The notes beneath the pieces are model-generated. The model was not told where the DNA came from, did no database searches, and worked only from the letters and a program-made list of their open reading frames with translations. 64,000 nucleotides of DNA from an uncultured delta proteobacterium. Its GTDB lineage: Bacteria; Desulfobacterota; Desulfomonilia; UBA1062. The position numbers and the translations under genes were made by a program. Each line of letters begins with the position of its first letter. The first letter of the stretch is position 1. The stretch is from positions 32,001 through 96,000 of the forward strand of contig CAWCTR010000020.1 in the NCBI GenBank assembly GCA_963798485.1, written 5' to 3'. Positions 10,228-36,051 of this stretch are shown here, in pieces.

Positions 10228-10304
10228 TGGTCGGGACGAGAGGATTTGAACCTCCGACCCCCTGAACCCCATTCAGGTGCGCTACCGGACTGCGCTACGT
10301 CCCG
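10228..10304 (-). tRNA. tRNA-Pro(GGG)
   Basis: 77-nt cloverleaf CGGGACG..CGTCCCG-ACCA; anticodon arm CCTGA-ATGGGGT-TCAGG; T loop GGTTCAAATCC. Confidence 0.97.
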
Positions 10305-25600: not shown

Positions 25601-26907
25601 CAAGGATACGTTACAGTATTGAAGATATCAGGCACAACACCAAGGTCTGGATACCCCAGATCCACCCGTACATACCCCAACTGTGGTCTGCCATGTTGAA
25701 CCACTACGGCTACGAAACAAACGCCATGGGCGAGGAGACTGCCGCCGAATGCACGGCAGGCAGGGCATTATGCCGCGGGAGCGAGTGCCTGCCGGCAGCG
25801 GTTACTACCGGTAAGTTTCTCTCGGTAATCAAAGACGGCCCGGCAAACTGCCACCAAACCCTGTTCATGCCCCGGGCAGAAGGCCCTTGCAGGTTTGGTC
25901 AGTATGCAACACTCCAGTCCATGATCTTTGACCGGGCAGGGTATAAAAATATCAGCATATTCTCTCCCACTTCAGAGGACGGATATACCTTTCTTACGCC
26001 CAGGATGGAGATGGATATCTGGAAGGCTATCTGCCTGGGTGATGCCTTGTTCAAGCTGCGGTGCCGGGTATTGCCCTATCATAAACACCCGATCATGGCA
26101 GAGGCCCTCATCAAGGAAGTCCTTGATGAAATCTGCGGCCTGATCCGCACAGGCAAAGACTGGAAGGTGGCCCTGTCATCGCTGACAAACACACTCAGCA
26201 TCGATTCGGGACTCGATCAACCGTTAAAACCGCTTGTGGGTATTGTGGGCGAGATCTTTGTTCGGCTCAACAGCTTTTCCAACCAGCACATCGTGGAGAC
26301 CGTGGAGGCCAATGGCGGCGAGGTCTGGTTATCACCCTTTTCGGAATGGATTCATTATGTCCGGGACATCCTTGCCATGAGATCAGGGCCCGTTAAGAAG
26401 CTTGGCACGCGCATTAAGAACCATATCCTCCATAGGGTTGAGAGGGACATCATATCCCTCTTCTCACCGGTGCTCGACCATAGACATGAGCCTTCCATAG
26501 CAGCGGTCATAAGCAAGGCCAAGAGATTCATCCCGCCGACCTTCGAGGGAGAGGCTATCCTCACGATTGGAAGGGCCAAATTGTTTGCTGAACAGGGGGC
26601 AAGCCTTGTGGTGAACTGCTCGCCCTTCAGTTGTATGCCTGGAAGGGTAACTTCGCACCTGTTCCAGACCTACCGGGATTATTTCCAGGTACCGGTGGTG
26701 AACCTGTTCTTCGATGGCACAGGCGATATTTCGAACCAGGTGGGGATCTATCTGAAATCCATAACCCAGGCCTATACAGAAAAGCGCCCTATGCCCTCCA
26801 CAATCTTCCAAAAACCAGGGAAGAAGCCTGCAGCCACTCCGTGGGCAAAGGTTATGGGTGACTCCCTGCAGGAAGATATCTTTGATGATGAATACAGGAG
26901 CAAGTAG
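22666..26907 (+). CDS. Acyl-CoA dehydratase activase (two ASKHA BadF/BadG/BcrA/BcrD domains plus DUF2229-like domains)
   Basis: GIDVGSS / GVDIGSTSTK, CAAGTGSF twice, EIGGQDAK, NFSCGPD, GPCRFGQY. Confidence 0.9.
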   Translation: MNVSFLGIDVGSSYIKLWYEDVSGSVITARNIHHRGSPQSTVINELSCLNPEPMFLSFSGNLAGQDIMGWHHEGLLSEIDYLRKMYPSRQLLIFGAEKIELVNFDESGHILFYQTNPSCAAGTGSFLDEQMLRLGLDFSDLPHIAIDESAPLVATRCAVFAKTDIIHLQQDGHTAYSIYNGLCKGLVLSSLKSVFGGNLPNGSGIIATGGLLENLHIRHYLKQVFPMIQIAQDPAFTRARGLSLAARLHGQNFTGFMTILKEHTPGKARSSALRPLKLKKSAFPATEMTRRTDNYGNEIWHDLCENESLEVFLGVDIGSTSTKAVLTDTKGTIRLDIYTKTSGNPIEATKRIFQGILSVQKDLPCSIAIHGCATTGSGRKLIGTIIGADLIVNEISAHAKGALTLDENVSTIFEIGGQDAKFIRIENGRIVDVNMNYVCAAGTGSFVEEQARTLDMSLDEISAKVMGVIPLPNSDRCTVFMNQEITRQISSGYPKDQIMAGVLMAVFKNYVSKVVGNRNYNKDKIVFQGATARNKGLVAALEQITNAQVMVSEFCHVMGAYGAALLTKGKGLGKTSFRGLVIPDVSIKEKACKGCENTCRITFVKAGTEKTSWGYMCGREPGAQSEERKINQSVKIRDDLLKGYKTALQKGTHAFKMPALGLYEEFLPLLTEVASACDLSIEVCYPGKNEIQKELSAIGSGDFCYPIKVAMACVNVLLKEDPSSRILLPFLIQDIKDDSIHPRSYYCPFITTVPSFFKDKTLSSRVFTPEIDLSRSIPWQARQIWDFLKRSGIDGINPFKIITGIRRGMEKLEQHRRELTSKATSILDDVGDEKAIVLLGRPYNLYHRILNLGIPELIESLGYRVITMDAIPDDITNKDITGLYPDMYWYQGQRLLKKALSIRNMPNLFPLMISNFSCGPDSFILTYFEEICSDKPYLILELDEHGSATGYQTRIEAFIDMIEQHSGCSIQAPHISKSARIRYSIEDIRHNTKVWIPQIHPYIPQLWSAMLNHYGYETNAMGEETAAECTAGRALCRGSECLPAAVTTGKFLSVIKDGPANCHQTLFMPRAEGPCRFGQYATLQSMIFDRAGYKNISIFSPTSEDGYTFLTPRMEMDIWKAICLGDALFKLRCRVLPYHKHPIMAEALIKEVLDEICGLIRTGKDWKVALSSLTNTLSIDSGLDQPLKPLVGIVGEIFVRLNSFSNQHIVETVEANGGEVWLSPFSEWIHYVRDILAMRSGPVKKLGTRIKNHILHRVERDIISLFSPVLDHRHEPSIAAVISKAKRFIPPTFEGEAILTIGRAKLFAEQGASLVVNCSPFSCMPGRVTSHLFQTYRDYFQVPVVNLFFDGTGDISNQVGIYLKSITQAYTEKRPMPSTIFQKPGKKPAATPWAKVMGDSLQEDIFDDEYRSK

Positions 26908-27050
26908 AAGATACAAATAGAAGATAATAATGACCACTACAAAATGGAAAGCGATTATGAAGGCGCAATAAGCAGTTCGCTAACAACACCACCCATACCA
27001 TATCAATAAACAAGGTCCGCCTTATAATTCCTATATCTTTATTAATCTAA

Positions 27051-27073
27051 TGGTCGGGCAGTGGGGATTTGAA
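27051..27073 (-). repeat. Degenerate tRNA-Pro 3'-end repeat (distal att core)
   Basis: TGGTCGGGCAGTGGGGATTTGAA vs tRNA TGGTCGGGAAGCGGGGATTTGAA (21/23). Confidence 0.85.
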
Positions 27074-27238
27074 ACACGAAACCGTATTGTATCTAAGCCA
27101 CTCCACAGGCCGCTGCGTGAGAATCACGTGAAAGTTGAAAATTAGTTGGCTGAGAAAATTCTTGAATACCCCCTCCCCTGACAATAATATGCTGATACAA
27201 TAAATACGTTATTATTGAGATTGACTCTTTCTCCGATA

Positions 27239-27256
27239 TGATATACGTGTATAGCA
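27239..27256. promoter_or_regulatory. Palindromic operator upstream of relBE
   Basis: TGATATAC-GT-GTATAGCA (7/8 arms), downstream of TTGACT at 27221. Confidence 0.55.
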
Positions 27257-27271
27257 TAAGGGAGAGAACCT

Positions 27272-27496
27272 ATGCTTGCTATCCGACTTCCCGCAGAAAT
27301 TGAAGACCGACTTGAAGCCCTGGCAAAAGCCACCGGACGGACTAAGACCTATTATGCCAGAGAGGCAATTCTTGAGTATATTGACGACCTGGAAGATGTC
27401 TACCTTGCCGAGAAACGGCTGGAAGATATCCGAGCAGGCCGAACAAAGACCGTTCCGCTCGAAAAGATCATGAAACGCCATGGCATGGAAGGTTGA
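27272..27496 (+). CDS. Type II antitoxin, ribbon-helix-helix (RelB/CopG-like)
   Basis: MLAIRLP.EIE.RLEALAKATGRTKTYYAREAI..DLED.YLA. Confidence 0.9.
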   Translation: MLAIRLPAEIEDRLEALAKATGRTKTYYAREAILEYIDDLEDVYLAEKRLEDIRAGRTKTVPLEKIMKRHGMEG

Positions 27497-27752
27497 GCTT
27501 GACCCCGCAACAGTGCGGGATTTAGACCGCCTTGATAAGCAAGTTGCCCGACGCATCCTCAGTTTCTTATATGAAAGGGTTGCTCAACTGGACGATCCAC
27601 GCAGCATCGGCCAAGCGTTGCAGGGTTCCAAATTTGGAGAGTTCTGGAAGTATCGCGTGGGTGACTGGCGAATAATCTGTAAGATAGAAGATAAACGAAT
27701 AATTGTGTTAGTTCTCCGTATTAGACATAGAAGTAAGGTATACAGGCCCTAG
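27480..27752 (+). CDS. Type II toxin, RelE/StbE family
   Basis: DDPRSIGQAL..WKYRVGDWRII..IRHR; overlaps the antitoxin end. Confidence 0.92.
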   Translation: MAWKVELDPATVRDLDRLDKQVARRILSFLYERVAQLDDPRSIGQALQGSKFGEFWKYRVGDWRIICKIEDKRIIVLVLRIRHRSKVYRP

Positions 27753-27785
27753 AAAATCCAGGTCACCATGGAATCGATAGTAAAC

Positions 27786-27889
27786 TGGCCGGGAAGCGGG
27801 GATTTGAAGACTATTCCCTTGATTATAAACCGTCATCAGGCCTAATTCTACAGACTCGTACAGGATTTATGTCCGAGACTTGTCCGAGT
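27786..27889 (-). repeat. att-like repeat copy 2 (tRNA-Pro 3' end plus ~80-bp arm)
   Basis: Ungapped match to 29331-29434 with 17 mismatches in 104 nt by hand count. Confidence 0.9.
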
Positions 27890-28043
27890 CAAAATCATGA
27901 GATATTAAGTTCATTATTGAGAGTAAATTAATAATGATCCGTCATGACTCCTTATCGAATATCATGGTGACTTCATAAGTGCCGTAGCTTGATGTCATGC
28001 ATGTTGTTTATAGTTGTAGTGATTCGAATAAATTAGATTTATC

Positions 28044-28086
28044 TTGCATCCTTGCAATTTGGAAGGTAGTATTCCAATATGCAAGG
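28044..28086 (+). promoter_or_regulatory. Sigma70 promoter with overlapping inverted repeat; likely leaderless mRNA
   Basis: TTGCAT(28044)-N17-TAGTAT(28067), ATG at 28079; CCTTGCAATTTGGAA..TTCCAATATGCAAGG inverted repeat. Confidence 0.55.
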
Positions 28087-29245
28087 TATTTACATTCCCA
28101 GATCTCTAGAAAACGATGTACGTCGTGGACTTGAGGAATTCCCGGCTGTGGCAGTCTTGGGTCCGAGGCAGTGTGGTAAGTCAACCCTGGCAAAGCATGT
28201 TATTGAGAGCTTCCCGCAGAGTATCTATCTCGATCTCGAACGTCCGTCCGATGGGCGCAAGCTTACCGATCCCGAACTGTTCTTTGATCACTATAAGGAC
28301 AGGCTCATCTGCCTGGATGAGATCCAACGTCTCCCAGAAATCTTCACCATATTAAGAAGCATGATCGATGAAAGAAGGAGGCCTGGTCAATTTCTCATTC
28401 TTGGATCAGCTTCTGGTGATCTGCTCCGGCAAAGCTCGGAGAGTCTCGCAGGTCGTATTGCCTACCTGGAATTGGCACCTTTCAGTATTAATGAAATATC
28501 TGATCGACCTGTGAGTACTCTCTGGTTACGCGGAGGGTTCCCCTCAGGCTTGCTTTCTAATGATGATCAGTCAAGCTTCCGCTGGCGACAGAATTTTGTT
28601 CGCACGTTTCTGGAACGTGACATATCCCAGCTTGGAATCCGGATATCTTCAGCCTCAATCGAGCGTCTCTGGCGCTTATGCGCACATTATCATAGTCAGC
28701 TGCTCAATCTCTCGGCCATTGGGAGTTCTCTGGGGATAACCCATCATACCGCCCGTTCCTATATCGATCTTCTCAGCAAGACCTTTATGCTCAGGGTACT
28801 TCCCCCGTTTGAGGCAAATGCAAAGAAAAGGCTTGTGAAGTCGCCGAAAATTTATATCCGGGACAGCGGACTGTTGCATACATTACTGGGAATTCGGGAA
28901 TATGAAGATCTGTTGGCACACCCTGTATTCGGGGGATCTTGGGAAGGTTTTGTTATTGAAAACATACTGACTTGTTTGCCTGACTGGAATCCGAGTTTTT
29001 ATCGTACCTCTGCTGGCGCGGAAATAGATCTTGTGCTTGAGAGAGGCAAACATAGGATTGCCATCGAATGTAAGGCATCATCTTCACCGTCAGTCACGAA
29101 GGGATTCTGGTATGCCCTCGATGATATTCAACCCGATGAAGTCTTGATTGTGGCTCCGGTCAAGAAAACGTACCCCATCAAAGAAGGAGTGATGGTTATT
29201 CCTTTGCAAGAGCTTGTGCAACACCTGATGAAAAAATCCCCATGA
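28079..29245 (+). CDS. AAA ATPase with wHTH and DUF4143 PD-(D/E)xK-like C-terminus
   Basis: GPRQCGKST Walker A, LDEIQ Walker B, SESLAGR, KSPKIYIRDSG, EIDLV..IECK. Confidence 0.92.
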   Translation: MQGIYIPRSLENDVRRGLEEFPAVAVLGPRQCGKSTLAKHVIESFPQSIYLDLERPSDGRKLTDPELFFDHYKDRLICLDEIQRLPEIFTILRSMIDERRRPGQFLILGSASGDLLRQSSESLAGRIAYLELAPFSINEISDRPVSTLWLRGGFPSGLLSNDDQSSFRWRQNFVRTFLERDISQLGIRISSASIERLWRLCAHYHSQLLNLSAIGSSLGITHHTARSYIDLLSKTFMLRVLPPFEANAKKRLVKSPKIYIRDSGLLHTLLGIREYEDLLAHPVFGGSWEGFVIENILTCLPDWNPSFYRTSAGAEIDLVLERGKHRIAIECKASSSPSVTKGFWYALDDIQPDEVLIVAPVKKTYPIKEGVMVIPLQELVQHLMKKSP

Positions 29246-29352
29246 AGGATTTAAGAAAATTATTTGAAATGTATCAGGCTCTTCTCATCGAGAATGGAGC
29301 CCTGAAGAAAGAAAATCAATTATTGAAAGATGGTCGGGAAGCGGGGATTTGA
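29242..29352 (+). pseudogene. 5' stub of a second primase-helicase gene, truncated at the att core
   Basis: Translates MKDLRKLFEMYQALLIENGALKKENQLLK, 21/29 aa identical to the N-terminus of 30585..33440. Confidence 0.85.
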
Positions 29353-29434
29353 AGACGGTACCCTTCGCTGCAAACTTTCATCAGCCCTGCTTCTACAGAC
29401 TCGTACAGGGTTTCTGTCCGAGACTTGTACGAGT
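29331..29434 (-). repeat. att-like repeat copy 3 (perfect 23-nt tRNA-Pro 3' end plus arm)
   Basis: TGGTCGGGAAGCGGGGATTTGAA identical to 35975-35997. Confidence 0.92.
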
Positions 29435-29453
29435 TCAATTGAATAGTTTATTA

Positions 29454-29504
29454 TACCGGAGAGTCGACTTGAATCCCCACATCCACAAGGGACTTCGGAT
29501 TTTG
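29454..29504 (-). repeat. Degenerate tRNA-Leu 3'-half fragment (att remnant)
   Basis: Aligns with 35700-35749: GACT.GAA..CCCACA....CAAGG..CTTCGGATTTTG. Confidence 0.7.
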
Positions 29505-29689
29505 GTTTCGTTAAAGCAAAATATCAAACCCCTTGATCTTAGGTCTTATTTTCCGTAATACCTTAAATTTAGGTCAATTTATGATTTCAATCTATTCCCT
29601 TACAGTCTATCAGTTCTCACATTTTTCCTTGGATTCTAGCACAATTTTAGCACAGTTATGGCGTATGTTAAGTAGCAGATATTATATCT

Positions 29690-30339
29690 AATCACCATAA
29701 ATCATAAGAAGACAGACAGGATATACCGGGAAGAAGGGTTATCGTTGAGGAGAAAGAAGAGGAAGAAGCTCCTAGGAATAAGGGTTGCCCCTGAATTAGC
29801 TACGAGAGTGAATGAGGTATGGTCCATGGATTTCGTGTCAGATGCACTTGCATGCGGCAGGAGATTCCGAGTGCTGACGGTTGTGGACGATTATTCCCGA
29901 TTGTCACCTGGACTTGAAGTAGCCTCATCGCTTCCTGGGCAGAGGGTAACAAGATTTCTTGACCACGTGAGCTTGAACCATGGATATCCAGAGCGTATCC
30001 GTGTGGATAATGGGCCGGAGTTTCTTTCCACGAATTTTACCGCCTGGGCTTTGAAGAAAAGGATACGGATTGAATATATCAGGCCGGGCAAGCCTTCAGA
30101 TAACTGCTACATTGAGAGCTTCAACGGTAAGTTCAGGGACGAATGTCTCAACGAGAACTGGTTTCTGAGTATCAAGGAGGCCAAAGAGATCATTGAAGGA
30201 TGGAGGGCCGAATATAACGAGATCCGCCCGCACAGTTCCCTAGGGAACTGTACTCCTTGAGTTTTACAGGGAACACCAGGCCGTGCTAAAAAGAAAAAAT
30301 ACTTGCCTTGGAAGTGGCCTAGTCAACGGGGTAAGGTCA
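29690..30339 (+). mobile_element. IS3-family (IS407-like) transposase remnant: OrfB integrase core and right end
   Basis: [47 protein letters not shown]; right end GGGGTAAGGTCA at 30339; orfA and left end absent. Confidence 0.88.
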
Positions 30340-30584
30340 AATATACCGATATGGGAGAAATCAAGGCACGCGGTCGCAAACGTCTTGCCGTAAAACAGAA
30401 AAAGCCAAAGTCCTAATGCCGCTGATGTTCACGATAGTGTTGTGTTCACAATTAATGAACGATGATGGATCGTGAACTACATCAATTAACCAAAATTGAT
30501 GCAGCCCATATTTAATCAATTTGCACTATTTCATGTAACTAAGGCTCAGCATCCATTGTCTCTGGTTTGGATCTCATAGTTTAG

Positions 30585-33440
30585 TCAATGATTCAGGGAT
30601 TCACTCGATAGCGACAAGCTTTTCATCAGCTCATGGGCAATGTTTGGGCTTTCGAGCCGCATAATGCTTTCTTCAGCACTCCCAAAGCTCAAAAGATTGA
30701 TACTCCCATACCAGATGATTCTTTGGTCCAATGCAGAAAATTTCTGGTGGATATTGGATTTGAACACCAATTGGACACCGGCTTTTTTCAACAAATCCAG
30801 GACTTCCTCCAGAGCTGTTCTGTTCTTGTCCTTAAAATCGGAGGCCGGTCTTGTCACAACTACCACCTTAACGCCTTTCTCCAGCGCAGCACCTAAGTGT
30901 TGCAGCATCTGAAGAGCACGTCTCTTCGTAACAAATGGGCTTACGATCAGGACCTCTCTTGAAGCATTCATCAAATCATTACTGTATACGGGAAGAAAAT
31001 TGCTTTTATCGAAAATGATGTTCACGGATTCATCGCCAAGGCTTTCCGCCTTCGCGGAATAGCCTATGGACGCATATCCGGCAAGTCTTTTACCATACAT
31101 TTTTTCCAGCATCCTTACATGGATATCGACGTAGTCGTAAATCCGGACCTCCTTTTTGTCTTCAAACAAACGATGCAGCCTGCCTGCGTATTGCTGCAAT
31201 GTCCCTTTCCATGATATGGGCATGGCTAGAAATAAAGTGTCCAGGCGAGGCTCGTCAAAACCTTCGCCTATGTATTTGCCGGTTGCAACCAGAGTTAAAT
31301 GCTTATCAGCAGGCACATTGGTTATCCTAGCAAGCACCTCTCTCGTTTCTTTAACTCCGCGCCCGCCCGTTAGAGTCATCACGTCCGGTATCTTTTCACT
31401 CAACATCTTTGCCAGCAATTCGACATGGGCGGTTCTTTCAGTCAAAACGAGTGAATATCTTCTTTCAGAAAAGTTTTTAATCACATCATCGATAATGAAT
31501 TGGTTCCTGAATTCATCTTTGGTTATCTCGGTATATAGTTCCTGGATCGAAAGGCCCTTTTCATCCTGTTCAAACGGTATCCTGAAGCCGGTGAATCTGG
31601 GAATTATGTAATGTGCGAAAGGTCTTTTTTCCGCCTGAGATCTGGCGTCAACCCTGTACCTGACCGGCCCGCAATGCATAAAGATAATAGGATGGTGTCC
31701 ATCCTGCCTTGTAGGGGTAGCCGTCAATCCATACACATATTTCGCCTGAACGGCTTTAAGTATCTGCTCAAAGCTGAATGCCGGGACGTGATGGCATTCG
31801 TCCACGATCACCATACCATAATTCCTGACAAGATCTTTTACTTCACCGCTGTTGTTCAGGGACTGCATAATCGCAATATCGATGATGCCACTCGGATTAT
31901 CCTTTCCTGCTCCTATCTGGCCGATCAGGCTTTGCTTTTTCTTTCGTCCCCGTCTTTTCTCCAATACCGGGAGTTTCTCTTTAATGTTCAAGAACTCGGA
32001 CATCCTTGATGTCCACTGAGAAAGCAGCTGTTGCCTGTGTACTAATATCAGAGTGTTTGTCTTTCGTTCTGCAATCAATTTGGCTGCTATAACTGTTTTT
32101 CCAAATGCTGTTGTTGCAGAGAGAACGCCATGATCATGCTTCATCATCTCATCCAACGAAAGCTTCTGTTCTTGTCGAAGTTCACCTTTGAATGAGACAT
32201 CAATGTATTTCCCGGAATTTGTATGATCAGATAAGACCACTTCAGCAGCCGCCTCAGCGAGTAGGCTTGTAACATCGGCTTCACATCCTCTCGGCAGGCA
32301 CAGGTATTCCGGTGTCTCATCTGAGCACGAAATGACCCTCGGTTTGTTATAGGTTGGCATTCGCATAGCCTGGGCTTTGTAAAAATCCGGATTCTTAAAG
32401 GCAGCAAGCCTTTTTAAAGCGTTCAATGCCTTCTGTGAAATACCTAATTTCTTGATGTAGAACATGTTCGCTCTTACGAGCTCGACCTTTTTGGGAAAAT
32501 CATCCTTTGACCATTTGATCCGACTCGGCTCCCATGGTTTCACCTCTTCTTCATCATCTTTCTTCAGAACCCCAAGCTCACTCCCATGGCAAAGCTTTGA
32601 TATCAGCATGCCAACATCTGATTCAGACAGTTTCCTTATTCTGTTCAAGAATCCCCATTGGTCTTCGTAGGGATGGAAGCCATCATCAATGAAAACGCTG
32701 TTCCCTTTCTCCCGTGCTTTCTTCTGCAGCGGGAGCGCAATGAGGTTGCCGAAGCCGCCCTTCGGCATTGTATCCTGGTTGGGGAAAAATCGGTCATAGG
32801 ATTTGAATGTGATTTCGTGACGTCTGCCCATCGAATAAGTCAACAGAGCCGTGCCGAACTTTCGTGCAACGCTCGCGGATATGGGGTCTGTGAAGAAAAA
32901 CCATGCATGGGCACCATTACCAGAACGAGAACGCTCAACGACCTCGGGGATATCGAATTCCTTACAGACATCCCTGAGCGTGGAAACATCTTTTTGCCAG
33001 CCGTCGTCGTCAAAGTCGATCACCAGAAAACTACACATTTCATCTTGTCGCAAAGGATAAATCCCCACAACAATGTTCCCCCTCAAATGACCCTCAATAA
33101 CTTTCTCGCTCAAGGCAACGTATGATTTATTCGGGCATTCTGAACATTTTACAGCAGGCTTCCTGCAGGTGCCTGATCTCCATTCATTCAAACACACCGG
33201 CGTATATCCGGATCTGCCTTCTCTATTTTCCCATCTCCTGGCATAAATATCGTCTCTCCCTTTGAACAGGGACATAAACAATCTGATTTTTTCTAAGGGA
33301 TTAGGGTCAACATGACTTTCTGCCTGCACCGGTTCAGTGATGCCCAACCTGACCTTCAATAACTCATTCTCTTTCTTCAGGGCTTCATTTTCGACGAGAA
33401 GAGCCTGATACTTCTCAAGCAATTCTCTATAACCCTTCAT
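30585..33440 (-). CDS. AEP primase-like (TOTE-type) + SF2 DEAD/DEAH helicase + PLD-like nuclease fusion
   Basis: Cys cluster, IDFDD, ERSRSGNGAH.W, DRFFPNQD..GNLIALP; ATTAFGKT, DECHH, TATP; C-terminal HQK..D..YGSIN. Confidence 0.88.
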   Translation of the reverse strand: MKGYRELLEKYQALLVENEALKKENELLKVRLGITEPVQAESHVDPNPLEKIRLFMSLFKGRDDIYARRWENREGRSGYTPVCLNEWRSGTCRKPAVKCSECPNKSYVALSEKVIEGHLRGNIVVGIYPLRQDEMCSFLVIDFDDDGWQKDVSTLRDVCKEFDIPEVVERSRSGNGAHAWFFFTDPISASVARKFGTALLTYSMGRRHEITFKSYDRFFPNQDTMPKGGFGNLIALPLQKKAREKGNSVFIDDGFHPYEDQWGFLNRIRKLSESDVGMLISKLCHGSELGVLKKDDEEEVKPWEPSRIKWSKDDFPKKVELVRANMFYIKKLGISQKALNALKRLAAFKNPDFYKAQAMRMPTYNKPRVISCSDETPEYLCLPRGCEADVTSLLAEAAAEVVLSDHTNSGKYIDVSFKGELRQEQKLSLDEMMKHDHGVLSATTAFGKTVIAAKLIAERKTNTLILVHRQQLLSQWTSRMSEFLNIKEKLPVLEKRRGRKKKQSLIGQIGAGKDNPSGIIDIAIMQSLNNSGEVKDLVRNYGMVIVDECHHVPAFSFEQILKAVQAKYVYGLTATPTRQDGHHPIIFMHCGPVRYRVDARSQAEKRPFAHYIIPRFTGFRIPFEQDEKGLSIQELYTEITKDEFRNQFIIDDVIKNFSERRYSLVLTERTAHVELLAKMLSEKIPDVMTLTGGRGVKETREVLARITNVPADKHLTLVATGKYIGEGFDEPRLDTLFLAMPISWKGTLQQYAGRLHRLFEDKKEVRIYDYVDIHVRMLEKMYGKRLAGYASIGYSAKAESLGDESVNIIFDKSNFLPVYSNDLMNASREVLIVSPFVTKRRALQMLQHLGAALEKGVKVVVVTRPASDFKDKNRTALEEVLDLLKKAGVQLVFKSNIHQKFSALDQRIIWYGSINLLSFGSAEESIMRLESPNIAHELMKSLSLSSESLNH

Positions 33441-33444
33441 ATAT

Positions 33445-33921
33445 TCATCGCTCCTGTAACCACTTCTTTCTTTCCGTCTTTAGTTCTTGTGTCATGGATT
33501 TGATCATATTCGGACCAATCAATACTTTCCTGTCAGCTATGAGCCCATCGCAAACAAGAAAGCCTTCATATGGTAATATCGCTGTGTCAATGACAATCCA
33601 ATCCGGAATTAGCTCTTCCAATGGAGTTGTCAGAGCCTTGACACATAACCAAGTGTTATCCAAACGCCTGAATGCATAGCCTTGCTTATACTTCTTAGCA
33701 TAGATGAACATACCGTAGATTGAGCTTCTTACAGCAAGAACAAAAGACTCGTTGTATGAAGAATCGAATGCATAACACTTGTTGAACTCTTTCTTATAGA
33801 GCTTGTTGCGAGCCTCAATATAGTCGTTGATGTCCTCCATTGGTTTGGCTGCAATAGTGACAAGAAGGCGTTTGTATTGCATAAGAAAAGTACTGGCGTG
33901 TGAAGGATCAATTAGAGCCAT
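33445..33921 (-). CDS. Hypothetical protein in the AbiE-helicase operon
   Basis: 158-aa ORF co-oriented and tightly spaced between abiEii and the helicase. Confidence 0.75.
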   Translation of the reverse strand: MALIDPSHASTFLMQYKRLLVTIAAKPMEDINDYIEARNKLYKKEFNKCYAFDSSYNESFVLAVRSSIYGMFIYAKKYKQGYAFRRLDNTWLCVKALTTPLEELIPDWIVIDTAILPYEGFLVCDGLIADRKVLIGPNMIKSMTQELKTERKKWLQER

Positions 33922-33965
33922 ATTTCATACCGCTTACAGTTTTTCTTCCTTCTGTTTATTCATTA

Positions 33966-34880
33966 TTATGTCCATGGTCCCCCAGCTTCCCAGAACTGTT
34001 TGAATGGCTTGTTCTGAGATGCAGCACTAAGCGGCGGAATAAGAAACTCTTGGAGTCTCTTAACAACTTCAGACAGGACAATTGTTTGTTTCCATCCGAT
34101 TCGAGAGAGGAAAACATTCCATTGTTTGTTTCTATCTTCATCTCGTGCAAATTCCTCGCTGAGGCCGATAGGAAATTGTTGGGGAATTGACGTCTTCCTT
34201 CTTTCAAAGGTAGCTTTCATTGCCTGCACAAGACTTGCGCCTTTGAAAGAGAAACTCCGGGATAATACCCACATATCGAAATAATCTTTCATCCGAGAAT
34301 TTTGCATACCCAAGGATACTATCGTCTGAGTTTTTTCTGAGATGACGCTTTCCATTGGATATGCCCTGATCCTTGGTGCAGGGAGGTTGAGAATGGTTGG
34401 ATAGTCTACTTCTTCCGGTGGTGGTGCTACTGCATCACCAAACCCTACATCAACCTGTATTCTTATCCGCGCACCTGCCAAGTATGCAAAGAAGAGCATT
34501 CTTTTACCGGTATACTCCTGATCTTCTCTGATATCCGTCACACTGAAACTATCCTGGTCAAAGGTCAATCCATCCGGTTCGACTTCTGTTGTGCAGATTT
34601 CCTGAAAAAGATTGATTATCTGTTTATCAGAGAGATCTCCATAACCGAGAAGATCAAGGTCGCGAGTAGGTCGGTGAACACCACCACCCCAGATTTCAAG
34701 CAGAAGAGCACCTTTGAGAATAAATCTATCGACGAAGGGTGAAACCCCAATACGGTATAGAAGGCGCTCAAGCGCATAGCGAGTAAGCACCAGGTCAAAA
34801 GGATCACCAGCCTTCCTTGAGACATTCAAAAGCCTCTCCCTAACCGATGCGGCAATATTAGTAGGAGATATCTTGCTCAT
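33966..34880 (-). CDS. Type IV TA toxin AbiEii-family nucleotidyltransferase
   Basis: ERLLYR, FILKGALLL, RPTRDLDL, EK, NSRMKDYFD. Confidence 0.93.
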   Translation of the reverse strand: MSKISPTNIAASVRERLLNVSRKAGDPFDLVLTRYALERLLYRIGVSPFVDRFILKGALLLEIWGGGVHRPTRDLDLLGYGDLSDKQIINLFQEICTTEVEPDGLTFDQDSFSVTDIREDQEYTGKRMLFFAYLAGARIRIQVDVGFGDAVAPPPEEVDYPTILNLPAPRIRAYPMESVISEKTQTIVSLGMQNSRMKDYFDMWVLSRSFSFKGASLVQAMKATFERRKTSIPQQFPIGLSEEFARDEDRNKQWNVFLSRIGWKQTIVLSEVVKRLQEFLIPPLSAASQNKPFKQFWEAGGPWT

Positions 34881-35485
34881 AGGAGGGCCTGAATGTAAGG
34901 CTTCATTACCTTTTCTACCCTACAGATCCGGCTGTACTTCCAGATCTCATCCATCGTGCATTTACGTTGAGACCAGCAATCTTTCAGTGCCTCGAGGGCA
35001 ACATCGGTACCGATCTTGTTTCGATATTTAAAACAGTCTGCAACCGTTTTAGGCGCATCATAAACCTTTACCTGAACACCATCTATAACATGCTCCTCAA
35101 TCCCCTCAGTAAGAGCCTGGGCAGAGAAGCGGACAAATCTGATGGATGGATAATCCACTTTGGGGAGCCTGGATTTACGATCAATGACCATCCACACCTC
35201 AAATGGAGCCTGTGATGTCAGACCATGGAAACTCAGAGCTGACAGTAGGCATAGAATTCCGTTAGGGACACGCTTAGCAGCTTCAGCGAATGTATGATGC
35301 TCGGTAACATGGATACCAGGGAGGGTATAAAGCCCTCTTCCTATCTTTATTATCAATCCTCTCTGATAAAGGCGCTGAAGGTACGTTCTTGGTATGGATC
35401 GAACATCCAGATCGCGGGGACGGAGCACGCCTTTTCGTTTGATGAGTTTCAGGACTTCTTCCGACTGGCTCTTTTTCATTCCCAT
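34877..35485 (-). CDS. Type IV TA antitoxin AbiEi family
   Basis: N-terminal wHTH with IGRGLY, CLLSALSFHGLT, KTVADCFKYRNKIG. Confidence 0.93.
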   Translation of the reverse strand: MGMKKSQSEEVLKLIKRKGVLRPRDLDVRSIPRTYLQRLYQRGLIIKIGRGLYTLPGIHVTEHHTFAEAAKRVPNGILCLLSALSFHGLTSQAPFEVWMVIDRKSRLPKVDYPSIRFVRFSAQALTEGIEEHVIDGVQVKVYDAPKTVADCFKYRNKIGTDVALEALKDCWSQRKCTMDEIWKYSRICRVEKVMKPYIQALL

Positions 35486-35489
35486 ATAT

Positions 35490-35537
35490 TGTTACATTAT
35501 GTTGGCACTTGTCAATATATGCCTACACTATGTAACA
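35490..35537. promoter_or_regulatory. Inverted repeat upstream of abiEi (putative auto-repression operator)
   Basis: TGTTACATTATGTTGGCA-N12-TGCCTACACTATGTAACA, about 15/18 arm match. Confidence 0.65.
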
Positions 35538-35696
35538 TTAATTGGCTTAACCAAGCTTATTAAATGAAGGTTTATCTACAAAGAGTCTTCGGTTATCGAT
35601 TGAAGTAATGGATGGGATTAAGAAGCCGTTTAGCACAATTTTATAATAATCCGAAGTGCCTTTTGGTAACTGCTGACTCGTAACTTATGGAATTCA

Positions 35697-35751
35697 TGGT
35701 GCCTGAGGGGGGACTCGAACCCCACACTCGCAAGGAGCTTCGGATTTTGAG
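35697..35751 (-). repeat. tRNA-Leu(CAA) 3'-half fragment (att site)
   Basis: Minus strand CTCAAAA-TCCG, long variable arm, GGGGTTCGAGTCCCC, CTCAGGCACCA; 5' half absent. Confidence 0.85.
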
Positions 35752-35974
35752 ACCAAAAAATAAATATTTGCGAGACTGATCACCAATTAAGGCCAACAAA
35801 AAACATATTTCAGCCGATACTAGTCGGACTCCTTAGTGAAACAGACATGTTAATGAAAGGTTATTATAGTTACAAAGGGAAGGTAAATTAACATTAAATT
35901 AGTTAGTTGCAGCAGGTAGCGGGGATTTATTTAACTCATTCCTATATAACTAATTGATATTATTATAGTTATGA

Positions 35975-36051
35975 TGGTCGGGAAGCGGGGATTTGAACCC
36001 CGGACCCCAGCGTCCCGAACGCTGTGCTCTACCAGGCTGAGCCACTTCCCG
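35975..36051 (-). tRNA. tRNA-Pro(CGG)
   Basis: 77-nt cloverleaf CGGGAAG..CTTCCCG-ACCA; anticodon arm CAGCG-TTCGGGA-CGCTG. Confidence 0.97.

Follow-up and report, generated by a model that had tools for sequence, protein, structure and literature searches.

Three integrase-less, att-bounded units of toxin–antitoxin and defence genes in tandem at the tRNA-Pro(CGG) gene of an uncultured delta proteobacterium

We analysed a stretch of 64,000 nt from contig CAWCTR010000020.1 of an uncultured delta proteobacterium (assembly GCA_963798485.1; this stretch is hereafter the window, and positions are counted from its first letter), in which three units carrying toxin–antitoxin (TA) and defence genes stand in a row behind tRNA-Pro(CGG), each bounded by copies of the 3' end of that gene and none encoding an integrase. 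The locus is probably a tandem array of three remnants resembling cis-mobilisable elements (CIMEs), built by accretion and deletion. The array is real and well documented, belongs to a kind already known and does not look like a new cassette system. The tRNA-Pro(CGG) 3' end is a true site-specific integration hotspot with variable content, because both empty and differently filled sites are found in relatives. The attachment site, its copies and the units between them are:

35975–36051, minus strand: intact tRNA-Pro(CGG), the attB-bearing gene (ARAGORN; Rfam, 64.3 bits)
29331–29353: att copy C, exact over 23 nt (25 nt identical including one base on either side)
27786–27808: att copy B, 1 mismatch in 23 nt
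27051–27073: att copy A, 2 mismatches in 23 nt, distal edge of the array
27051–27785: unit 1, 735 bp, ribbon-helix-helix (RHH) antitoxin and ParE/RelE toxin (Pfam)
27786–29330: unit 2, 1545 bp, AAA_14-DUF4143 ATPase and a 28-codon TOTE-like stump
29331–35974: unit 3, 6644 bp, IS3 remnant, TOTE gene, 158-aa gene and AbiEii/AbiEi

Read on the plus strand, the 3'-terminal 23 nt of tRNA-Pro(CGG) are TGGTCGGGAAGCGGGGATTTGAA, and this core recurs at the three places listed, always in the orientation that it has in the tRNA and with mismatches that increase with distance from the tRNA, a gradient that counts among the signs of decay. The repeats had been reported from an earlier, sequence-only reading of this DNA, and we recovered them with the same mismatch counts and with no other non-tRNA copy in the genome (designated G000; 32 contigs, 4,302,938 bases, estimated contamination 6.96%). 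A 25-mer search of the whole genome allowing up to 4 substitutions matched only the core copies and other genuine tRNA genes; since copies are otherwise confined to genuine tRNA genes, chance is excluded. All core copies end at one T-loop position and comprise only the 3' part of the tRNA, followed by non-tRNA sequence, and their spacings are the unit lengths given above. The GC content of the array (41–48%) differs from that of the left flank (50–53%), which points to a foreign origin. The further suggestion that each unit has its own promoter was not borne out, the 16 promoter-like matches in the array comparing with 16.4 expected from shuffled sequences; two of the 16 are sensibly placed, upstream of the RelB-like gene and upstream of abiEi.

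A 12-kb region around the array was searched in 40 relatives, and the locus was compared in 14 genomes of the genus (G numbers below). Empty sites were identified in G003, G007 and G012, each with a single core (the tRNA itself) and the left flank directly adjoining; the junction falls precisely at the 3' end of the tRNA. The flank found against the tRNA in G003 and G007 lies against the outermost core in G002, G011 and G000, a mark of precise insertion, and the sequence left of copy A is homologous to the flank that meets the tRNA at the empty G007 site. In G002 the site holds a core, an 807-bp unit with ParE and Phd, another core, and a 16.2-kb element encoding Fic, a MobA/MobL-TraI relaxase, a DUF2958 protein, a coupling protein and a 414-aa tyrosine integrase, the stop codon of which lies 15 nt from tRNA-Pro(CGG). 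All three cores of G002 are exact, and the left arm of the element is homologous to that of the neighbouring TA-only unit. Both flanks of G002 are 96–98% identical to those of G003, yet the site is empty in G003 and filled in G002, the whole array having been gained or lost at the outermost cores. Also contained in the 807-bp unit is a cargo-free copy of a core-like sequence with its arm, a sign of decay; arm repeats that had seemed to lie on both sides of the G002 TA unit were dropped from consideration, the right-hand repeats belonging to this cargo-free copy. Other fillings comprise a 667-bp RHH-ParE unit standing alone in G010 (77% identical to unit 1), a 1310-bp unit in G011 with a nucleotidyltransferase and a 152-aa gene (TA-like), its left arm being homologous to the unit 1 arm, and, in G013, a TOTE gene oriented toward the tRNA, with a right arm like that of unit 3 after it. 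In G005 there is only a core with 4 mismatches and fragments of an integrase (amino acids 304–406 of the G002 integrase), again a mark of decay. Genomes G008 and G014 carry other genes with no extra core, and the loci of G001, G006 and G009 end at contig breaks. The proposed tandem arrangement of integrase-free, att-bounded units at a tRNA gene is thus upheld, content and number varying among relatives (empty, single and multiple fillings within the genus) and empty sites joining at the tRNA 3' end. The cargo of the G002 island is not homologous to that of the window, so that simple deletion from that island does not account for the three units.

The statement that no recombinase lies in the array likewise stood. 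The genome has 23 PF00589 (tyrosine recombinase) matches, of which none falls in the array or elsewhere on this part of contig C20, and 5 PF00239 matches, of which none falls on C20, the array included; a tblastn search of the array with the G002 integrase gave no match, and Pfam found no relaxase or coupling-protein domain among the array proteins. Homologues of the G002 integrase (E <= 1e-40) occur in 3 of 15 genomes of the genus. The two in G000, 75% and 67% identical to it, are located at a tRNA-Met tandem array and at tmRNA; the homologue at tmRNA (C8:118533–119744) contains one in-frame TGA and is therefore a possible pseudogene. Across G000, 11 tRNA or tmRNA genes have downstream repeats of their 3' ends, and one or more PF00589 integrases are present in 8 of the 11 intervals. 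The three intervals that lack one are the smallest (4.2, 7.5 and 9 kb, the last being the tRNA-Pro array), which counts in favour of remnants. The 4.2-kb interval at tRNA-Arg(CCT) (C4:8886–13217) holds a SIR2-like gene and a 729-aa gene, and the 7.5-kb interval at tRNA-Ser(GCT) (C7:560561–568157) holds a type III restriction-modification (R-M) system and a Schlafen/AlbA_2-type gene, both between exact 22-nt repeats and without an integrase.

Unit sizes and cargo were as the sequence-only reading had described them (Pfam, PADLOC), except that unit 2 also holds the TOTE-like stump. The features of units 1 and 2 are:

27074–27213: left arm of unit 1
27272–27496, plus strand: RHH antitoxin (RelB/ParD-like), 74 aa (DUF6290, TraY, RHH_1)
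27480–27752, plus strand: ParE/RelE-family toxin, 90 aa (PF05016, 1.5e-16, profile positions 1–89 of 89)
27809–27889: left arm of unit 2, with GTCCGAG repeats at 27871 and 27882
28079–29245, plus strand: AAA_14 and DUF4143 ATPase, 388 aa (Pfam; PADLOC candidate defence gene PDC-S01)
29242–29327, plus strand: TOTE-like gene stump, 28 codons

About 75 nt of the unit 1 left arm are homologous to unit arms in G010, G011 and G013 (contig C49). In unit 2, the ATG of the stump overlaps the stop codon of the AAA gene (ATGA), and the stump shares 84% identity with the opening 86 nt of the unit 3 TOTE gene (33440–33355, on the other strand). This homology ends 3–4 nt short of core C, where TGGTCGGGAAGC in the core stands against AGGTTGGGCATC at the matching place of the intact TOTE gene. 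Because unit 2 ends in a truncated TOTE stump, its tRNA-side edge is a deletion junction, which was possibly formed at a core-like secondary site; the fusion of 28 codons to core C is itself a sign of decay, as remnants would show.

An IS3 relic and nested att halves of tRNA-Leu make unit 3 composite. Its features are:

29354–29434: left arm of unit 3, 84% identical to the unit 2 arm
29456–29504, minus strand: diverged tRNA-Leu(CAA) 3' half from the anticodon loop, nested left half-site
29513–29669: 157-nt arm after the left tRNA-Leu half
29745–30260, plus strand: IS3-family transposase remnant, 171 aa, rve/rve_3 only
30585–33440, minus strand: TOTE-type protein, 951 aa, full length, with AEP primase, SF2 helicase and PLD nuclease
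33445–33921, minus strand: conserved 158-aa protein, 4 nt upstream of the TOTE gene and co-oriented with it
33966–34880, minus strand: AbiEii nucleotidyltransferase toxin, 304 aa (PF08843; PADLOC, 1.2e-114)
34877–35485, minus strand: AbiEi antitoxin/regulator, 202 aa (PF13338; PADLOC AbiEi, 2.7e-88)
35696–35754, minus strand: tRNA-Leu(CAA) 3' half, 88% identical to the genome's own gene, nested right half-site
35755–35974: right arm of unit 3

Both tRNA-Leu(CAA) halves are direct copies beginning in the anticodon loop and lie inside the tRNA-Pro shell, and these nested half-sites show a composite history; no island is present at the genome's own tRNA-Leu(CAA) site. The 157-nt arm recurs after a tRNA-Arg(TCG) 3' half at the edge of an element resembling an integrative mobilisable element (IME) (G000 C7:627728–627884), and also at G000 C13:17210–17336 and on contig C1 of G002. 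The IS3 remnant has no second copy in the genome, and its reduction to rve domains is a further sign of decay. At the other end of the unit, positions 35879–35974 are 85% identical to the sequence adjoining tRNA-Pro in G013, and 35909–35931 may be a degenerate core. We also compared four runs (X1, X2, X4 and X5) in the form of Logan contigs, which are unable to show excision; at most 0.32 of the sampled words was found in any run, and a part that is not covered need not be absent. In X1, X2 and X5, from three other studies, contigs match the cargo of unit 3 at 98–99% identity and little else, and the unit 3 cargo is the only part of the array found at this identity in those studies, which fits a recent spread of this cargo.

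GTCCGAG repeats occur in units 2 and 3 solely in the left arm, as decayed elements might show, and the right ends of the units are only 15–35 nt long and unconserved; repeats of ACGGGG type are found in the arms of the G002 and tRNA-Met elements. By blastn, the proposed repeat of 104 nt including the core (27786–27889 and 29331–29434) was recovered as two copies in the genome, 83.7% identical, and the arm that it contains matches nothing else there. Nor was that arm matched in the 12-kb region search of the 40 relatives, and its 86 nt had 0 matches in 51 other genomes of the order. The 370-nt stretch 29331–29700 (core C, the unit 3 arm, the Leu half-site and part of the 157-nt arm) had no plasmid or phage match in distant mode. 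An exact 20-base pattern of the arm gave one match among JGI metagenome contigs, which was taken as chance, as only 22 bases are common and no tRNA is near. With the unit 2/3 arm found nowhere else, no cognate integrase is in sight; an integrase elsewhere whose element carries the same arm, as the sequence-only reading had envisaged, was sought in the genome, the 40 relatives and the 51 genomes of the order and was not found.

Taken together, these observations suggest a history in which the tRNA-Pro(CGG) 3' end would serve as the attachment site for tyrosine-integrase elements in the genus, repeated site-specific integration next to the tRNA would build the array by accretion, and deletions would remove the integrase ends. 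Addictive or defensive cargo would then survive between att scars, namely the TA pair of unit 1, the AAA-DUF4143 gene with a cut TOTE gene in unit 2, and the composite of IS3 relic, TOTE, 158-aa gene and AbiE in unit 3. The tRNA-proximal unit would have arrived last, an order that had already been proposed and that fits both the exact core C and the 98–99% matches to unit 3 cargo in three studies. Integrases may have been lost by deletion, possibly through integrase-mediated recombination at the core-like secondary site inside the TOTE gene, and the array is predicted to be immobile now unless the matching integrase of an incoming element moves it in cis or in trans.

That the array might be an artefact of assembly or binning, its tRNA fragments having come from mis-joined contigs of a contaminated metagenome-assembled genome, is highly improbable. 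The assembly of 32 contigs with 6.96% estimated contamination, and repeats of 23–104 nt, which can mislead assemblers, would lend themselves to such an error, but independent X4 contigs match 26764–28797 at approximately 100% (unit 3 is not covered) and bridge copy A (26959–27348) and copy B (27510–28077, with no differences) at 99–100% identity, which argues against an artefact at those two repeats. The layout of core, small unit and tRNA was, moreover, assembled independently in G002, G010 and G011, and synteny with relatives holds for both flanks on single contigs. Duplication does produce partial tRNA copies, and the repeats might on that account be pseudo-tRNAs left by local duplication of the tRNA gene, with no site-specific integration at all; this is scarcely credible for copies that all end at one T-loop position, consist of the 3' part only and run on into arm sequence common to units, and in view of the clean empty sites, and the integrase next to the same core, in relatives.

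A different account of the same anatomy, which we consider unlikely, holds that the small units are maintained, integrase-less att cassettes, each consisting of a tRNA-derived core, a conserved arm of approximately 75–150 nt with a promoter region in it, and either one TA pair or one operon of defence genes, inserted, excised and shuffled in trans by integrases of co-resident or incoming IMEs. Such cassettes would be functional analogues of integron cassettes, pseudo-SCC elements or pdif modules. Several observations favour them and count against decay from full elements, beginning with the recurrence of integrase-less att-bounded units, which exceeds what casual decay might suggest. TA-only units occur at tRNA-Pro(CGG) in G000, G010, G011 and G002, and integrase-less TOTE or TA units (among the open reading frames (ORFs) scanned) at tRNA-Asn, tRNA-Glu, tRNA-Lys and tmRNA in other lineages. 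One left arm is common to units with different cargo, its homologues being present in four units, drawn from four genomes and carrying cargo of two kinds. In G007, G013 and G009, 3' fragments of other tRNAs are accompanied by RelBE modules 81–83% identical to unit 1, so that the module is found at four such fragments (Pro(CGG), Pro(GGG)-like, Ser-like and Ala); that of G007 is a 664-bp RelBE-only unit at tRNA-Ala with its own 47-nt repeat and in the opposite orientation. The G002 TA-only unit, with its exact cores, adjoins an IME with a homologous left arm and is missing from the close relative G003, which means that it was gained, or was lost from G003, site-specifically and not by decay in place. 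Further integrase-less defence units with exact boundary repeats are present in G000 (the SIR2-like interval at tRNA-Arg and the type III R-M interval at tRNA-Ser), and a 343-nt X2 contig carries the unit 1 arm (27063–27135) followed by sequence unlike the window. Finally, searches of the genus, the order, plasmids, phages and metagenomes found, for none of the units, a larger relative with an integrase, and descent from a full element is to that extent conjectural. Set against the cassettes are the lack of any integrase of G000 tied to the tRNA-Pro site (the G002-type homologues being at tRNA-Met and tmRNA), the ACGGGG-type arm repeats that go with those homologues, which differ from the GTCCGAG of units 2 and 3, the absence of the unit 2/3 arm from the 51 genomes of the order and of plasmid or phage matches to the 370-nt stretch, the short and unconserved right ends, and the broken gene at the edge of unit 2; unit 1 is also no closer than 77–83% to its best matches in other genomes. 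The broader proposal, of an exchangeable population of att cassettes in this lineage, perhaps widely in Syntrophales-type anaerobes, which IME integrases insert or remove in cis or in trans, is similarly doubtful; under it, the TA-only units of 0.7–1.3 kb would be the smallest att cassettes.

The preferred reading, of CIME-like remnants, places the array beside systems already described. Pseudo-SCC elements of staphylococcal composite islands and pdif modules of Acinetobacter plasmids lack a recombinase, often carry TA or resistance genes and are moved by a recombinase encoded elsewhere, the former by Ccr serine recombinases at the rlmH target and the latter by XerC/D at plasmid dif-like sites; the array differs from both in its recombinases, targets and site geometry. 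Unlike a self-sufficient tRNA-targeting genomic island, it has no tyrosine integrase of its own beside the att site. The islands at ssrA in Dehalococcoides reportedly each carry their own integrase, whereas the tRNA-Pro array has none. They resemble the array in that copies of a small-RNA-gene 3' end separate successive islands at one hotspot (PMC3146451). CIMEs keep attL and attR without integration and transfer genes, and a three-step scheme has been given for them, in which an element integrates, decays to a CIME and is followed by a further element that integrates next to the target gene (PMC5704250). This scheme fits the anatomy of the array, and the ICESt1/CIME case of Streptococcus thermophilus similarly has att repeats of a target 3' end, no integration or transfer genes, and a tandem arrangement. 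As a further likeness, relatives here carry a functional-looking IME at the same site (G002, with a relic in G005). The array is distinguished by its target, tRNA-Pro(CGG) in an uncultured anaerobe-type genome, by two very small units (0.7 and 1.5 kb) with TA or defence genes only, and by the absence from this genome of an integrative conjugative element or IME with a matching integrase, mobilisation here being predicted only.

The most far-reaching claim of the sequence-only reading, a dedicated integron-like cassette system, was not sustained. As in integron cassettes, small single-function units stand in a row beside a fixed site, and TA cassettes with their own promoters occur in chromosomal integrons. 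However, the array lacks an IntI with adjacent attI and Pc, no tyrosine recombinase lies in or beside it, and its sites are direct repeats of a tRNA end rather than attC hairpins: DNA folds of the repeats gave z-scores of -0.07 to -2.27, not consistently better than shuffled sequences, with structures that differ between the two copies. Its units have at their edges the kind of arm usual at lambda-type att sites, and the truncated edge of unit 2, the composite nature of unit 3, the arms on the left side only and the integrase relic at the same site in a relative are likewise at odds with such a system. The term integron-like would hold only as an analogy and is not required by the data. Since an integrase acting in trans defines known CIMEs, that part of the idea is reasonable, if not new.

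The locus constitutes a well-resolved example of defence and TA genes piling up at a tRNA hotspot, with close relatives providing empty, singly filled and multiply filled states and att sites intact enough for the order of events to be read. It helps to explain defence islands that have no mobility genes, as integrase ends are lost and cargo and att scars stay. Were the att-cassette account true, tRNA genes would sustain an exchange of cassettes on a par with that of integrons, and tRNA 3' ends would be open, integron-like defence arrays.

Among the cargo genes, the TOTE-type protein belongs to the PF22548 family (1.6e-103) and also has ResIII, Helicase_C and PLDc_2 domains; its role in a conflict system is read from the Pfam name, and a full-text literature search on 'TOTE' found no paper. 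Full-length relatives with 58–77% amino acid identity appear, from record titles, in Syntrophaceae, Smithella, Bacteroidetes, Ignavibacteria, Bacillota, Actinomycetota and others, which suggests wide horizontal spread of this protein type. Among 80 public TOTE loci, the DNA compared includes a tRNA or tmRNA gene in 16, at most 200 nt from the TOTE ORF in 5 (counts given without a baseline). A simple repeat test identified unit boundaries in four loci (L069, L070, L082 and L109), with no PF00589 match among their scanned ORFs of at least 70 aa. The idea that TOTE itself places units at tRNA genes was rejected for want of support, there being RelBE-only units without TOTE and only 16 of the 80 loci with a tRNA or tmRNA gene. 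A Fic gene neighbours TOTE in at least four loci (L067, L069, L070 and L082). The 158-aa protein, which has no Pfam or PADLOC match, has 71 homologues at 40–85% identity, none annotated, and its gene was not found beside TOTE in the 80 other loci. An X1 contig skips 627 nt inside the TOTE gene (31152–31780), and the G013 copy is without 626 nt elsewhere in the gene (31555–32180).

The abiEi and abiEii genes overlap by 4 nt and form a type IV TA system of AbiE type, with regulator and nucleotidyltransferase in one operon. Their promoter region (35467–35538) is 85% identical to G000 C24:66865–66936, which lies near the distal repeat of a 49-kb island at tRNA-Leu(TAA). An X2 contig has a backward joint from 35964 to 35706 with 11 extra letters, in tRNA-like sequence. 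A second proline tRNA, Pro(GGG), is located at 10228–10304, 25.7 kb upstream and in the orientation of tRNA-Pro(CGG), and the RelBE unit of G013 adjoins a fragment resembling this isoacceptor. The second tandem array of the genome, at tRNA-Met (G000 C7:376511–396231), has exact 3'-end copies at 385818 and 396208. Its first unit (9.2 kb) encodes a PLD nuclease and many unknown ORFs without an integrase, and its second unit an integrase (75% identical to that of G002), a resolvase and a DDE transposase. The hybrid att site at 385756–385841 in this array is called by ARAGORN as an 86-nt 'tRNA-Cys'.

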